From IMG/VR virus record IMGVR_UViG_3300045988_052724, positions 125,818-189,817 of that record: DNA of 64,000 nucleotides; one strand, 5' to 3'. Shown in pieces: positions 40,283 through 59,655 of the stretch. A program made the position numbers and the translations under genes. Source of the stretch: a virus. The notes under the pieces were generated by a model. The model ran no database searches. It was given only the letters and a program-made list of their open reading frames with translations, and was not told the origin of the DNA. Within the stretch, counting starts at the first letter, position 1. Every line of letters begins with the position of its first letter.

Positions 40283-40818
40283 GGGCTTGCATGGTTTTGA
40301 CAGGCGATTACAAGTTATAAGGACGTGTAGAGTTCGTACCAACTCTTATAAAATGATACACAATTTTAAGTGGCAACACTGAAGTAAGAATGGCAGCTTA
40401 AGCTGTGGCTTATTAATATTAACGTATTAGTATAGTCGGGTTAACGGAGAAGACCTAGAAACAGAAGAGGTGTGGGAAGAAGCATATAGGGCAGCCCACT
40501 TAACTTGAACGCCAAAGGTTAGTAGAGCTGAGATTCTCCACAATGTGTATGGTAGAGACGCAAGGGCTATGCCTAAAAGTACTACTCGTTCTCCAACGTA
40601 AATGGAGTGGTGGAGAGCCGACTTCGGTCAGCCCAGGTTTGGTAGTTTGTAAATTAGCTTTAAGTGTACTGACTTCATCTATGATAAGTCTGGTTCTGAG
40701 TAAGACTAATAAAACTATCTACATGCTAGAACTCACTAGCTGATGTAATAAAAATGAGACACACGTTATCCTTGTAATAAGGGTTGTTTGGACGGCGGTT
40801 CGACTCCGCCCAAGTCCA
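40283..40818 (+). ncRNA. ssrA: tmRNA (SsrA), unusually long at about 536 nt
   Basis: The 5' strand GGGCTTG pairs with CAAGTCC at 40811-40817, giving a G3:U70 wobble (Ala identity). T-arm ggcgg-TTCGACT-ccgcc. GGTTTTGACAGG resembles the conserved GGATTCGACGGG. Candidate tag ORF GGC AAC ACT GAA GTA AGA ATG GCA GCT TAA at 40372-40401 encodes (A)GNTEVRMAA and starts about 90 nt from the 5' end. Confidence 0.75.
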
Positions 40819-40851
40819 CAAACATTATGTTTAACTAATCGACAATTTGAA

Positions 40852-41380: not shown

Positions 41381-41632
41381 ATGAGAAGAGTATATATTCA
41401 AATTATTGACCCGATTAATGGTACATATATAAATGCACGCCATGAATACCTCAATGCACATATGCAAGTCGTAGAGTCTACTCTAAGACAGTATGGCATA
41501 CGTAGCTCAGATTGTACACTTAAAACTGTGTCTAATATCGGTAAGGAGGTTCCTGGAATGCCCAAATACTCATTGTATCAAGGGTTGGTAAATGATACTT
41601 CCAAACTAGTAAATATAACTGTTGTAGGATAA
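41381..41632 (+). CDS. Hypothetical protein, 83 aa
   Basis: ORF track. Confidence 0.4.
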   Translation: MRRVYIQIIDPINGTYINARHEYLNAHMQVVESTLRQYGIRSSDCTLKTVSNIGKEVPGMPKYSLYQGLVNDTSKLVNITVVG

Positions 41633-41952
41633 CTCCTACTGCGAAACACGAAACTGACCTGATGAGTTAGGCTACATAGTGCGCACTATGTGGTTGACTT
41701 AAACGTGTATAAATAAAAGTTGGAACCTATTACGTATAGATTGTATTCTGCCCTCTGCGGGTGGATGAGGTGCAACTCCTCAATGTAATATATAAGGAGA
41801 GAATCCTTATATCTCTTGTAGTATCTATGTATAACTTGATTAATAGTCAGCATAACAAGAGTAGGTCGTCAGTGAAATTATTAAAAGATAGATTATGTAG
41901 GTAAAGTACGCTATATAATTATCTTATTTATGTATAAATAAGATATAAAACA
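41633..41952 (+). ncRNA. 320-nt ORF-free structured leader upstream of the TROVE-like gene
   Basis: Hairpins acatagtg-cg-cactatgt, tgagg-tgcaact-cctca, taagga-gagaa-tcctta. Contains cacgaaactgacctgatgagtt. Confidence 0.35.
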
Positions 41953-45114: not shown

Positions 45115-45208
45115 AAGGGGATACGCAAATGGTAAAGCGGCAGTCATTAGGGACTGTGGTATAATATTCTAGGTGTATACATTGAGGGTTCGATTCCCTC
45201 TCTCCTTA
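45115..45208 (+). tRNA. Class II tRNA-like gene (long variable arm), irregular anticodon loop (6 or 8 nt, contains TAG/TTA); possibly Leu-derived or a pseudogene
   Basis: Acceptor aagggga/tctcctt, T gaggg-TTCGATT-ccctc, variable arm gtata...tatac, anticodon arm cagtc-attagg-gactg. Confidence 0.4.
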
Positions 45209-45238
45209 CAATTCTTTGTAAAAATTACATTTGTCAGC

Positions 45239-45910: not shown

Positions 45911-46163
45911 CATTCTTCCCCAATCTTCCAAAGGGTGAGACGGAAGCGTTATGTTGAGGGCATCACGATAGAGAGACCTTAGTATCATGCTAACTTGAAA
46001 GCATGGAGAGCATTCGCTAATAAGGCTCTCTTAAATATTTTTAGTGAGGTTAGGTAAAGCTAGCATAGCCTAATGACAGGAATTTAGTCCATAATAGATG
46101 GAAACCAATGAAGTGAGGATTGAAGTCTTCCTTATGTCCAACTAAATTCCTTTATTCAACATC
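45911..46163 (+). ncRNA. Structured spacer (several strong hairpins)
   Basis: cttcc...ggaag, catgct-aacttgaa-agcatg, and the 11-bp aggaatttagt/actaaattcct. Confidence 0.3.
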
Positions 46164-46249
46164 GCGGATTAGAGAAGTGGTCTATCTCGCCAGTCTCATA
46201 AGCTGGAACACTCATAAGGTGTCACAAGTTCGAATCTTGTATCCGCAAC
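46164..46249 (+). tRNA. Atypical tRNA, anticodon CAT, long variable arm, C1:A72 mismatch
   Basis: cgcggat/atccgca, D gaga/tctc, ccagt-CTCATAA-gctgg, 17-nt variable arm acac...gtgt, T acaag-TTCGAAT-cttgt. Confidence 0.6.
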
Positions 46250-46441: not shown

Positions 46442-46452
46442 GAAATTAATAT

Positions 46453-46535
46453 GTGGGATGGTGTAAGGGTAACATTCTAGGCTCATAACCTAGAGACAGT
46501 AATGCTTGTGGTGGTTCGAATCCACCTCCCGCTAC
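46453..46535 (+). tRNA. Atypical tRNA, anticodon CAT, long variable arm, U1:U72 mismatch
   Basis: tgtggga/tcccgct, ctagg-CTCATAA-cctag, 17-nt variable region, T ggtgg-TTCGAAT-ccacc. The HNH ORF starts 2 nt downstream. Confidence 0.6.
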
Positions 46536-46536
46536 T

Positions 46537-47007
46537 ATGAAGAGCAGGATTGATACATTTAATGATTCTACATTTAAGGAGATAGTTAGTTCTTCATCAA
46601 CTTGGAAAGAACTAGCGGAGAGATTTGGATATGAAAGTACCTTGTCCTCAAACCTTAAAGCTAAGATTATTCAAAGATGTAAGTCCCTAGGCATTCCTTG
46701 CTTAGAGATTGCTAAGAAGATACCTGCAAACCAAAGAACTAAAGGAGAGTTGTTTACTACATTAAAGAATTGGCAAACTGCTAGAACAGCAATTAGGAAA
46801 GATGCCCAAGCCGTATTTGATAAATCTAATATCCCAAGATGTTGTGCTGTATGTGGATATGATAAACACATTGAGATAGCACACATTAAAGCCGTAGCCG
46901 ATTTTGATGATGGTACTTTAGTTTCTGAGATAAATGATATAAATAATCTAATAGCCTTATGTCCTAATCACCACTGGGAATATGATAATGGGCTTTTAGA
47001 ATTGTAA
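46537..47007 (+). CDS. HNH homing-type endonuclease, 156 aa
   Basis: CAVCGYDKHIEIAHIKAV ... LCPNHHWEYDNG. Confidence 0.75.
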   Translation: MKSRIDTFNDSTFKEIVSSSSTWKELAERFGYESTLSSNLKAKIIQRCKSLGIPCLEIAKKIPANQRTKGELFTTLKNWQTARTAIRKDAQAVFDKSNIPRCCAVCGYDKHIEIAHIKAVADFDDGTLVSEINDINNLIALCPNHHWEYDNGLLEL

Positions 47008-47099
47008 TGATATTACTCCAGGCAATGCAGAGAATTTCTCTGTTATTAGGACTGTTGTAGTTACGAAGAGTATGAGGGGTGAAACTCATAACTCACTAT

Positions 47100-54986: not shown

Positions 54987-55883
54987 ATGAATCAACCTAA
55001 AGTAAGTAAAAGTTCAATCTTTGCTATTTTGGCAGGAGTAATCGTAGTACTGTTAGTCTGCATGGCAGGTTCACTCTTTGAAGATGCTGATAAGTCTAAG
55101 AACTATGTTTGTCAGATGCCTATGTCTGGTAAATACGTTGTATGGACAGATGGTGGTCTTCAATGGCAAGGCCTTGGTAACAAGCACGAGTACTTCAAAA
55201 CTTCTCAAATAGAGTTCGTAGATTTAACGGAAGTTAGTGAAGGTAATTATGTTGCATCTGGCGCAAATCCAGCAGCTTCACTTACCTTTAATGATAAGGG
55301 TAAGGGATTTATTATCGGTTCTTTCCGAGTTGTTATGCCTAATGATGAAGCTAATATGAAGAAGATTCAGCAGGACTTTGGTTCTGAAAAGGCATTAATA
55401 GCTAACTTAATTAAACCTACTCTATATAAGGTTGTAACATCTTGTGGTCCTCTGATGTCATCATTGGAATCTGTATCTGAGACAAGAACTGACCTTATTG
55501 CCTACATCACTGACCAGCTTAATAACGGAGTATACAAGACGGTTGTAATACGTGATTCCGTTACCAATGAAATTACTGGTGAGAAGGAATTGAGAGCTAA
55601 GGCACAGATTGTTGCTGATGCTAACTCTCCAAGTGGTTATAAACGTCAAGAAACATCACCGTTCAGTCAGTATGGTATTACCTGTGGATTGGTATCTATT
55701 TTGGATATTAAATATGATGGAGCTACTCAATCTCAGATTGATGCCCAAAAGCAAGCTAACTTAGCCGTAATAACTTCTAAGACTAAATCTTTGGAAGCAA
55801 TTCAAAGAACTGTTCAGATTACTGAAGAGGGCAGGTGTGTAGAGTTCTACAACATACTGAGGGTTTGGAGTCTGAGACGGTAA
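54987..55883 (+). CDS. SPFH/Band-7 (prohibitin-like) membrane protein, 298 aa
   Basis: N-terminal TM segment, then a typical SPFH core (FRVVMPNDEANMKKIQQDFGSEKALIANLIKPTLYKVV...). Confidence 0.5.
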   Translation: MNQPKVSKSSIFAILAGVIVVLLVCMAGSLFEDADKSKNYVCQMPMSGKYVVWTDGGLQWQGLGNKHEYFKTSQIEFVDLTEVSEGNYVASGANPAASLTFNDKGKGFIIGSFRVVMPNDEANMKKIQQDFGSEKALIANLIKPTLYKVVTSCGPLMSSLESVSETRTDLIAYITDQLNNGVYKTVVIRDSVTNEITGEKELRAKAQIVADANSPSGYKRQETSPFSQYGITCGLVSILDIKYDGATQSQIDAQKQANLAVITSKTKSLEAIQRTVQITEEGRCVEFYNILRVWSLRR

Positions 55884-55967
55884 GAACAAACTGGGTAAAG
55901 ACTAAGTAATTGCGTATTTACGGACCTATAGCTCAGCCAGGTCAGAGCAACTAATTATGAGTCAGAT

Positions 55968-56044
55968 AGGGACGTATCCCCTCAAGCTTATACCTTGTAG
56001 AAAGGGTAGTCGGTCGCACGTGGGTTCAAGCCCCACCGTCCCTA
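55968..56044 (+). ncRNA. Nested tRNA-like element inside the insertion
   Basis: agggacg/cgtccct acceptor, gtggg-TTCAAGC-cccac T-arm. The D and anticodon regions are irregular. Confidence 0.4.
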
Positions 56045-56117
56045 CAACTTCTGGATTGAATTTTTAGTTTTGCACCAAAACATTTGGTATTATGATTATT
56101 TTCATATATATTTGTAT

Positions 56118-56666
56118 ATGAATTACAATGATTATAATACACAGAAGTTAAGAGGTTTAAAGCGCAAATTAGAGCTAGTAAAATCTCGTGGTGGTAAATG
56201 TGAACTATGCGGCTATGATAGAAACATAGCTGTTCTAGAATTTCACCATATCAATCCAGATGAGAAAGAGTTTCAGTTAGATATGAGACATTTATCTAAT
56301 ACAAGTCTAGAAAGGCTTAAAGAGGAAGCAGATAAATGTCAACTTCTATGCGCTAATTGTCATAGAGAAGTACATAACCCTCACTTGGGAATGGACGAAG
56401 TTGAAGATTTAGTTAATACTGAAGCTAAAGATAAGACGTCTTTTGAAAATATGACTGGGTCTGTATGCCCAGTATGCGGCAAAAGATTTCCTAAATCTAA
56501 GGGTAAGATATACTGTTCTAAGGAATGCAGAGATGCTGATAAACATTATCCTTCTCTAGAAGAAGTAAATGAGCAGTACGAAATACTTAAGAATTGGGAG
56601 AAAGTTGCTCAGCATTTTGGATTAACTCGCAGAGTTATTCAAGGAATAAGAAAGAAAGACTCATAA
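56118..56666 (+). CDS. HNH homing-type endonuclease inside the tRNA-like gene
   Basis: CELCGYDRNIAVLEFHHINPDEKEF ... LLCANCHREVHN. Its stop TAA is part of the CTCATAA junction. ATG at 56118 preferred. Confidence 0.75.
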   Translation: MNYNDYNTQKLRGLKRKLELVKSRGGKCELCGYDRNIAVLEFHHINPDEKEFQLDMRHLSNTSLERLKEEADKCQLLCANCHREVHNPHLGMDEVEDLVNTEAKDKTSFENMTGSVCPVCGKRFPKSKGKIYCSKECRDADKHYPSLEEVNEQYEILKNWEKVAQHFGLTRRVIQGIRKKDS

Positions 56667-56864
56667 TCAGGAGGTCGGGGGTTCAAAGCCCTCTAGGTCC
56701 ACTCCAGTTCTGCAGGACTTATCTATGCTGGGATAGAGAAACAAAGCAACCAGCTAGGCTACTTGAGTGAAGTGACGTATAGTAGTAGGTAATTCCATAC
56801 CTAATTGACGGAATATAGTTAGCCATTACTGAAATTAATGGCAAATCAATGAGAATTTGGTGGG

Positions 56865-56938
56865 AACTTAGTAGCTCAGCTGGATAGAGCACTCCCTAGC
56901 TAAGGGAGAGGTCAGTGGTTCGAATCCACTCTAGGTTG
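56865..56938 (+). tRNA. tRNA with an Arg(CCT)-type body but anticodon loop TAGCTAA (GCT, A33)
   Basis: aacttag/ctaggtt, ctccc-TAGCTAA-gggag, T agtgg-TTCGAAT-ccact. Its backbone closely parallels the tRNA at 61696. Confidence 0.55.
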
Positions 56939-56961
56939 CAAGTAATATTAAACTATTAAAT

Positions 56962-57111
56962 ATGAGTAATTTTACGAAAGGTATTATATTAATTATCCTA
57001 GGTATCTGTATAGGATTACTGTCTACAGTAGTTCCAGAAGCAATTGGAGTATTTATCCCACTTGCAGTATTTTTAGGAACACTGGGAATATTTAAGTTAA
57101 TAGATGATTGA
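56962..57111 (+). CDS. Small membrane protein, 49 aa
   Basis: MSNFTKGIILIILGICIGLLSTVVPEAIGVFIPLAVFLGTLGIFKLIDD. The antisense track ORF is judged spurious. Confidence 0.4.
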   Translation: MSNFTKGIILIILGICIGLLSTVVPEAIGVFIPLAVFLGTLGIFKLIDD

Positions 57112-57486
57112 ATGAAGAATATACTTTTACTTTTATTACTTATTCCCATGTCTATGTCAGGTCAGCATAATGTAACGGCAACGTATTATCATGCAGGACC
57201 AAAACATGGTTTATCATGGCACACAGCCAGTGGGAATAGAATTAGTGTTAAGAAACTAAATGCTGGTAAGTTAAGATGGGTAGCGCTATCACATAACTTA
57301 TTAAAGCATTATGATTATGGAGATACTATTATAGTAGTATCTAATAACCCTAAGCTTAGAGGTAAATGGGTAGTGATGGATAAGATGCACAAGAGACACT
57401 ATAATAAGATAGATTTCTTGACTCCATCTGGAAAGAATTTAGGAATGCTAAAACCAACTAAAGTAAAGATAAAGAAAAAAGAATAG
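57112..57486 (+). CDS. Secreted RlpA/3D-domain (double-psi beta-barrel) lytic transglycosylase-like protein
   Basis: Signal peptide, then TATYYHAGPKHG...TASGNR pattern. Confidence 0.5.
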   Translation: MKNILLLLLLIPMSMSGQHNVTATYYHAGPKHGLSWHTASGNRISVKKLNAGKLRWVALSHNLLKHYDYGDTIIVVSNNPKLRGKWVVMDKMHKRHYNKIDFLTPSGKNLGMLKPTKVKIKKKE

Positions 57487-59580: not shown

Positions 59581-59655
59581 GGCGACATAGCTCATTTTGG
59601 TTAGAGCGTGGAAATCATAACTCCAAGGTGGTTGGTTCGAATCCGACTGTCGCCA
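59581..59655 (+). tRNA. tRNA-Met/Ile2(CAT), class I
   Basis: ggcgaca/tgtcgcc, tggaa-ATCATAA-ctcca (A31:C39 mismatch). Confidence 0.75.

Follow-up and report, generated by a model that had tools for sequence, protein, structure and literature searches.

A probable mobile HNH endonuclease cassette splits a tRNA(CAU) gene of a gut crAss-like phage and carries a non-cloverleaf tRNA-like gene

Bacterial tRNA genes can be interrupted in the anticodon loop by group I introns, as in the cyanobacterial tRNA-Leu(UAA) and tRNA-fMet genes and the proteobacterial tRNA-Ile and tRNA-Arg genes, and the split tRNA genes of Nanoarchaeum and the bulge-helix-bulge introns of archaea offer another comparison for a tRNA gene found in pieces. 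Homing endonucleases also occur in the tRNA regions of phages, the HNH enzymes of T5 among them. SegB of T4 is a free-standing homing endonuclease in a phage tRNA gene cluster (PMC2330249; PMC13096335), and recent work connects the homing endonucleases of such clusters with the way in which tRNA genes directed against host defences spread and are amplified (PMC13096335). According to a recent paper, every known bacterial tRNA is a canonical cloverleaf (PMC11551756); an example of a tRNA lacking the D-arm is the metazoan mitochondrial tRNA-Ser(AGY) (PMC4394434, PMC12221289). Here we describe a locus in a stretch of 64,000 nucleotides (positions 125,818 to 189,817 of IMG/VR virus record IMGVR_UViG_3300045988_052724; hereafter the window), which comes from a gut crAss-like phage whose SPFH-family gene at 54987-55883 is 76% identical to its counterpart in Bacteroides phage crAss001. 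Within a very large tRNA array (33 tRNAs are called by ARAGORN in the window), one tRNA(CAU) gene is split by 705 nt that hold a tRNA-like gene and an HNH endonuclease gene. We consider it probable, from comparison with related sequences, that this insert is a mobile homing-endonuclease cassette and not an intron.

The locus consists of the following parts:

55922..55952, + strand: 5' part of the outer tRNA(CAU) gene, with the 5' strand of the acceptor stem, the D-arm and the first three bases (ACT) of the anticodon stem.
55953..55967, + strand: 5' junction of the insert, AATTATGAGTCAGAT, delimited by comparison with the intact allele; together with 55951-55952 it makes a 13-nt arm.
55968..56044, + strand: nested tRNA-like gene of 77 nt with the anticodon loop CTTATAC (UAU, for the isoleucine codon AUA) and no D-arm.
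56083..56114, + strand: promoter motif TTTG-N20-TATATTTG of Bacteroidetes type, ending 3 nt before the ATG.
56118..56666, + strand: HNH endonuclease open reading frame (ORF) of 182 aa (phrog_2255; Pfam HNH), under selection.
56658..56701, + strand: 3' part of the outer tRNA(CAU) gene, with GA of the anticodon stem, the loop CTCATAA, the 3' strand of the stem, a 5-nt variable loop, the T-arm, the 3' strand of the acceptor stem and the discriminator A.

Joined together, 55922-55952 and 56658-56701 give exactly the 75/76-nt tRNA(CAT) gene that is present uninterrupted in many relatives. The acceptor stem (GGACCTA/TAGGTCC) is perfect over 7 bp, the D-arm reads GCTC-AGCCAGGTCA-GAGC and the T-arm GGGGG-TTCAAAG-CCCTC, the last including one G.T pair. 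An initial annotation of the window had described a tRNA gene split in its anticodon arm by some 700 nt carrying a nested element and an HNH gene, with acceptor, D-arm and T-arm reconstituted by the outer parts, and all of these elements are borne out. The match of the joined halves is not due to chance, because the uninterrupted allele of the relatives is itself called a tRNA by ARAGORN and scores 65.1 bits on the Rfam tRNA model. In the related contigs L003, L007 and L039 (L numbers are our labels for related contigs and loci), the first 31 bases of the uninterrupted allele are identical to the outer 5' part and the BLAST alignment ends right after 55952; the outer 3' part is 100% identical to uninterrupted alleles, with the alignment restarting exactly at 56658. 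Since the alignments of the relatives stop at 55952 and restart at 56658 without a gap on the relatives' side, the insert is bounded at 55953-56657, between positions 29 and 30 of the outer tRNA.

A pattern search with the outer 5' part retrieved 48 viral contigs, 60-270 kb in length. In about 38 of these 48 related crAss-like contigs the gene is uninterrupted (76 nt), and in about 10 it has the 780-nt interrupted form seen in the window; the intron-minus alleles that the initial annotation proposed to look for in related phages thus exist. The flanks of L003, L007 and L039 are 95-99% identical to the window and contiguous across 55952|56658, which constitutes a base-precise empty site. The cassette itself remains 97-99% identical where the flanks of a contig align with the window at 75-85% identity or do not align at all. 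The same cassette lies in at least four different outer tRNA(CAT) genes (GGACCTA, GGGCCTA, GGGCCTC and GGGCCTG/GGACCCA types): in L052, L058, L059 and L177 it is found, with the same junctions, in tRNA(CAT) genes with other acceptor stems and T-arms. A scan of metagenomes yielded 24 further loci. The exon markers at positions 27 and 43 are only A/G or G/A in 17 distinct uninterrupted contexts, and all four combinations occur among interrupted alleles; this mixture would be the expected trace of co-conversion tracts of varied length. Among the possibilities raised initially, a free-standing HNH invasion that killed the gene is best supported, by the precise empty sites, a cassette more conserved than its flanks, several tRNA(CAU) targets and the series of decayed relatives described below. 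The data also agree with the companion suggestion of tRNA(CAT) genes as homing targets, at least four distinct tRNA(CAT) genes having been invaded at the same place.

The same data bear on two other explanations, an assembly chimera or the remnant of an integrase att site, that is, a tRNA 3' fragment duplicated by site-specific recombination. tRNA 3' fragments that begin in the anticodon loop are indeed typical of integrase att sites; however, more than 25 contigs, drawn from independent samples and three collections, share the 780-nt structure, no integrase ORF lies in or beside the insert, and the two parts are halves that complete each other rather than a duplicated fragment. Given the recurrence and the empty sites, we regard both explanations as effectively refuted.

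The HNH protein has an N-terminal HNH domain (CxxC...HH...CANCH), followed by a CxxC...CxxxC zinc motif and a helix-rich tail. It matches phrog_2255 'HNH endonuclease' among the PHROG families (E=7e-26) and scores 20.7 bits against Pfam HNH, just under the cutoff of 21.4; the CxxC...HH...CANCH residues are invariant in the protein alignment. Among intact copies pN/pS is 0.09, which indicates purifying selection, and 5 of 17 distinct copies are disrupted. A profile search gave 546 viral matches, and nearly all of the best 80 are located in phage tRNA arrays. The 73-nt spacer between the nested RNA and the ORF contains the promoter motif, which matches the Bacteroidetes consensus established for Bacteroides promoters; over both strands of the 64 kb only 3 composite motifs of this kind occur, and this one is kept in the diverged cassettes of L080, L166 and L169. 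With only 3 nt between the motif and the ATG, the HNH mRNA is predicted to have little or no leader. At its other end the ORF runs into the outer tRNA, and it does so always, also in cassettes whose protein is 56-65% identical. Its final three codons, GAC TCA TAA, are tRNA positions 30-38, the old anticodon stem and loop supplying the last two codons and the stop codon; as had been noticed initially, the TAA (56664-56666) lies inside CTCATAA (56660-56666), the former anticodon loop. The heptamer is not enriched across the window (18 found against 16.5 expected) and was rejected as a window motif.

Two side observations concern relatives of this gene. In-frame TGA at a Trp position (L061 3466-3468, L062 3454-3456) and in-frame TAG at Gln positions (L064 3463-3465) indicate stop-codon recoding in those phages. 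In L086 (1300-1810), a related HNH gene without a passenger tRNA cleanly separates positions 31 and 32 of a further tRNA(CAT), and its TAA stop stands immediately before an intact CTCATAA loop.

We propose that the cassette would spread as follows. When a related phage with an uninterrupted tRNA(CAU) gene infects the same cell, the HNH protein, produced from the cassette's own promoter, would cut that gene in or close to the anticodon stem-loop. Recombination with the cassette-bearing genome would then repair the break, so that the cassette would be copied along with variable lengths of the flanking tRNA.

If the insert were a true intron, it would be removed by cryptic self-splicing or by an endonuclease and ligase of phage or host, a helix between its ends would align them, and the tRNA(CAU) would be functional. 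The insert does lie in the anticodon stem-loop, the site of bacterial tRNA group I introns and of archaeal tRNA introns; the 5' exon ends in U (T at 55952), exact removal restores a perfect tRNA, and the junction helix described below brings the ends of the insert together. However, group I introns have U as the last exon base and require a terminal G, and the last base of the insert is A at 56657 (...AAGAAA|GACTCATAA), at a junction that the empty alleles make unambiguous. The search with Intron_gpI that the initial annotation proposed was negative: neither this model nor another ribozyme or intron in Rfam matched at E<=10 with permissive filters over 55800-56900, and none reached the gathering threshold in the whole window. 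Nor, by inspection, is there a bulge-helix-bulge, the junctions lying 11 bp apart within one continuous helix with no 3-nt bulges, and we know of no splicing endonuclease in Bacteroidota or their phages. The 165 non-coding bases of the insert are fully taken up by the junction, the independent tRNA-like gene and the promoter; this tRNA-like gene is also found outside any tRNA (L064, L065 and phage EGole); and related lineages drop the anticodon yet keep the stop codon. The group I interpretation of the initial annotation therefore fails, and we consider an intron of any kind very unlikely.

The fate of the outer gene was followed in more distant cassettes, at 38-72% protein identity, which show a complete range of intermediates. 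Good tRNA halves persist in the split genes of L077, L078, L079 and L086, the anticodon loop of L078 being TCAAA. In L166 and L169 the CAT anticodon is destroyed (CAATAA, AAATAA) and the TAA stop is retained, so that in these diverged cassettes selection appears to retain the stop codon and not the anticodon. Acceptor pairs 6 and 7 are broken in L156, only the 3' part is left in L061 and L062 (no 5' part lies within 3 kb), and L064, L065 and L083 have the cassette without any outer tRNA. The endonuclease gene is itself subject to loss: L163 has the HNH gene almost wholly deleted, and L085 has it truncated, with CANCH changed to CANSH at a zinc or active-site cysteine, and has also lost the 3' tRNA part. 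From this series we conclude that the outer tRNA, left in two pieces, is most likely dead as a decoder. As a separate observation, the tRNA region of L061 also holds a Pistol ribozyme (590-659, 61 bits).

The initial annotation had further reported that the insertion is bracketed by 13 complementary nucleotides. The complementarity between 55951-55963 (ctaattatgagtc) and 56658-56670 (gactcataatcag) is real, the junction duplex having a dG of -14.8 kcal/mol in the window that is equalled by 0/500 shuffles, but 12 of the 13 positions are paired and one is an A.C mismatch. Within it, TTATGAGTCAG is the exact reverse complement of CTGACTCATAA, that is, an inverted copy of tRNA positions 28-38 (11/11 match), and consequently the upstream part of the split gene carries an anticodon arm with a flipped loop. 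The 5' junction moves with the cassette into other tRNA genes (L058, L059), and all window-type cassettes have a strong junction helix (dG -12 to -18 kcal/mol, p<0.002). Compared with the window, L011 has two changes, both to G.U, L058 has three, with pairing kept or restored, and L156 a single double change, from G-C to A-U. L077, L079, L166 and L169 have no such helix, and on account of these four lineages we rejected it as a universal trait of the cassette family; in L078 the junction sequence differs and is still partly complementary. In our view the 13-nt complementarity arose at or after insertion, as an inverted duplicate of the anticodon stem-loop. A short ORF that begins at ATGAGT in the 5' junction was considered as a vestigial, older HNH start and rejected, because L156 has the junction motif together with a separate ATGAGT start after the nested RNA and because the junction matches the inverted tRNA at 11 of 11 positions.

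The helix could also be functional. In such an explanation, which resembles the extended-arm tRNA-like RNA considered in the initial annotation, the 5' part would be freed by an RNase P cut at the nested tRNA and would anneal, via the 13-bp helix and the 7-bp acceptor, to the 3' part at the end of the HNH mRNA; the resulting two-piece, tRNA-shaped 3' end would stabilise the mRNA, direct its processing, or mask the stop codon to tune expression. The strength of the window-type helices, the pairing kept in variants through G.U pairs and one compensatory change, the partial complementarity of the divergent L078 sequence and the unfailing entry of the HNH ORF into the tRNA 3' part all speak for such a scaffold. 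Against it stand the four lineages without a helix, the lack of a 5' part in L061 and L062, the free-standing cassettes of L064 and L065 and the deleted 3' part of L085; moreover, an inverted duplicate of the hairpin fully explains the helix. We consider the scaffold improbable and, more generally, an RNA-level role of the helix in the window-type lineage a minority possibility; the extended-arm proposal holds to the extent that the helix is real in that lineage, and does not extend to the others.

We stress that several points weigh against a mobile cassette that has killed its host gene. Both tRNA halves are still perfect in the window itself. The junction-helix variants seen are exclusively pairing-preserving (A-U to G.U, C-G to U.G, G-C to A-U), and this pattern hints at an RNA-level constraint that a simple 'dead gene' view leaves unexplained. 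Homing and the loss of outer tRNA function are both events that we infer from sequence, and the isoleucine identity that we assign to the outer tRNA below is based on similarity.

We think that the outer tRNA(CAU) is probably of the tRNA-Ile2 type, which would read AUA after lysidine modification. Of its full-length E. coli matches, the best is a tRNA with a CAT anticodon that PGAP annotates as tRNA-Ile (75% identity, E=3e-4; a control query, the tRNA at 59581, was uninformative), and it has C4-G69 and C5-G68, which we take to be the determinants of E. coli TilS. A sequence-string search for known tRNA-Ile2 gave no match, and no other Ile2-like gene was found within the window.

The nested tRNA-like gene scores 30.4 bits on the Rfam tRNA model, with the D-arm missing, is not called by ARAGORN, and scores 98 bits on our family model R1. 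A 3-bp basal helix (CCC/GGG) surrounds its anticodon arm and is followed by a 14-nt linker with an invariant GGT. Nineteen members of the family were collected, from window-type and other cassettes, from the Streptomyces phages EGole, Jollison and LilMartin and from Rhodococcus phage Peregrin; member positions include 55968-56044 in the window, 1500-1576 in L002, 300-376 in L185, 594-669 in L186 and 295-372 in L187. In a 12-sequence alignment (A3) all four helices covary: 98% of the cells are paired, a value that 0/500 shuffles reach, and 17 of 19 pairs are changed on both sides. The enclosing helix, formed by columns 11-13 with 37-39, occurs as C-G, A-U, U-A and G-C. Compared with a canonical tRNA, the acceptor, anticodon and T arms covary, and the four-arm cloverleaf is not formed. 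Judged by this covariation, the nested RNA is not a degenerate tRNA, and its GGT linker looks like a displaced D-loop.

The anticodons of the family are exclusively TAT or GAT. Rhodococcus phage Peregrin and 84 records of Streptomyces phages contain RNAs of the family; in those Streptomyces phages that were inspected, these lie between a nucleotidyltransferase gene and an FtsK-like gene. They are unannotated in nearly all of the listed records, one of which labels the gene tRNA-Leu. The nested element is absent from the fetched flanks of the window's uninterrupted relatives, and is for this reason best described as cargo of the cassette. In its place, the cassettes L080-L082 have a canonical tRNA-Ile(TAT) and cassette L077 a canonical tRNA(CAT). 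Rfam reports a 122-nt 'tRNA' in L052 that combines the outer 5' part with the nested T-arm; its acceptor pairing is poor, and we judged it spurious.

By its anticodon, the UAU tRNA-like gene of the cassette would also read AUA, a codon that accounts for 34% of the isoleucine codons in the long ORFs of the window, and it may make up for the loss of the probably AUA-reading outer tRNA. The canonical tRNA-Ile(TAT) of L080-L082 and the restriction of the family to TAT and GAT anticodons are indirect support for a use of the nested RNA in translation. We therefore put forward, tentatively and as the less likely part of our interpretation, the hypothesis that the cassette destroys a lysidine-dependent tRNA-Ile2(CAU) and delivers a D-arm-less tRNA-Ile(UAU) substitute, drawn from a widespread non-cloverleaf family, which would read AUA without the host TilS. 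That the cassette might spare the phage by replacement rather than by splicing is an attractive reading. To our knowledge, a selfish element that pays for its own damage with a replacement tRNA has not been described before.

A second HNH gene of the window (46537-47008) follows an 84-nt tRNA(CAT) variant with a long variable arm (the whole locus being 46452-47008), and L048 and L038, which are without this gene, have an ordinary 75-nt tRNA(CAT) at that place. Being polymorphic and paired with the 84-nt variant, it appears to be a further endonuclease that moves together with a tRNA allele of its own. When viral contigs were searched more widely with the tRNA at 46452, only unrelated tRNAs were returned. 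The downstream hairpin (47068-47096), which the initial annotation had cited in suggesting that CAT-anticodon tRNA genes are homing targets, is present whether or not the gene is there and so is no evidence of homing; as it is found in alleles without the gene, a scar left by the gene was also rejected, and the two appear unrelated. The hairpin itself, GAGTATGAG-GGGTGAAA-CTCATAACTC, is conserved, and its 3' arm resembles the CAT anticodon loop.

Other features of the array may be recorded here. The phage encodes a tmRNA (40283-40821, 83 bits in Rfam) that is, at 539 nt, long for its family; in the relative L060 a tmRNA starts 8 nt downstream of the 3' part of a split tRNA. A RAGATH-34 RNA lies at 41623-41733 (74 bits, Rfam). 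To a 95-nt tRNA at 45115-45209 (38 bits on Rfam tRNA) ARAGORN assigns a four-base anticodon (ttag). The 87-nt tRNA(CAT) at 46163-46249 has the C1xA72 mismatch typical of bacterial initiators; its anticodon stem is without the three G-C pairs, and CTCATAA recurs in the loop of an additional variable arm. The segment 50540-50570 (GTAGCTCAGTGGTAGAGCAACAGCCTCATAA) is similar to a tRNA(CAT) 5' part, no T-arm being obvious downstream, and is possibly one more tRNA-like gene that is broken or extended. The stretch 56703-57160, immediately after the split tRNA, is missing from the closest relatives L003, L007 and L039 and so forms a second indel; inside it, at 56865-56939, is a 75-nt 'tRNA-Ser(GCT)' without the long variable arm expected of tRNA-Ser.

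We found no prior description of HNH-split tRNA genes, of tRNA introns in crAss phages or of D-arm-less phage tRNAs in the searchable literature. What is new here is a probable homing endonuclease of a tRNA array that is inserted within a tRNA gene, accompanied by a passenger, non-cloverleaf, isoleucine-type tRNA-like gene whose anticodon covers the probable codon of the disrupted tRNA. An endonuclease gene inside a tRNA gene without an intron means that intron-like splits in phage tRNA arrays should not be presumed to be spliced, and standard tRNA finders miss or mislabel both the split gene and the passenger RNA. The presence of a strongly covarying non-cloverleaf RNA family in cultured Streptomyces phages makes charging and decoding directly testable; should they prove to be aminoacylated and to serve in translation, a bacterial translation system would for the first time be seen to use natural non-canonical tRNAs.

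Compared with SegB-type systems, the locus likewise has an endonuclease gene that resides in a phage tRNA array and is polymorphic among related phages, and it would likewise be inherited with neighbouring tRNA sequence after cleavage of an endonuclease-less genome. However, SegB is a GIY-YIG enzyme encoded between tRNA genes, whereas the enzyme described here is an HNH protein encoded inside a tRNA gene, at anticodon-stem position 29/30, and its cassette uses the anticodon loop as a stop codon and brings its own promoter and a passenger tRNA-like gene. With group I introns it shares its position, the anticodon stem-loop of a tRNA gene of bacterial type, as well as a patchy distribution and a 5' exon ending in U; it differs in having neither a P3-P9 core nor a terminal G, in carrying a promoter and an independent tRNA-like gene, and in the decay of the exons in its relatives. 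As in the split tRNAs of Nanoarchaeum, there are two halves and a complementary stretch of 12-14 nt next to the anticodon region, but the halves lie here on one strand, 705 nt apart, there is no bulge-helix-bulge, and the complementary stretch pairs the insert with the exon's own anticodon loop. Finally, the nested element has an acceptor stem, a T-arm and an anticodon arm and no D-arm, as do the D-arm-lacking mitochondrial tRNAs; unlike these, it is found in phages of bacteria, has its full length of 77 nt, and has its anticodon arm enclosed in a covarying 3-bp helix, after which comes a conserved GGT segment that resembles a D-loop.
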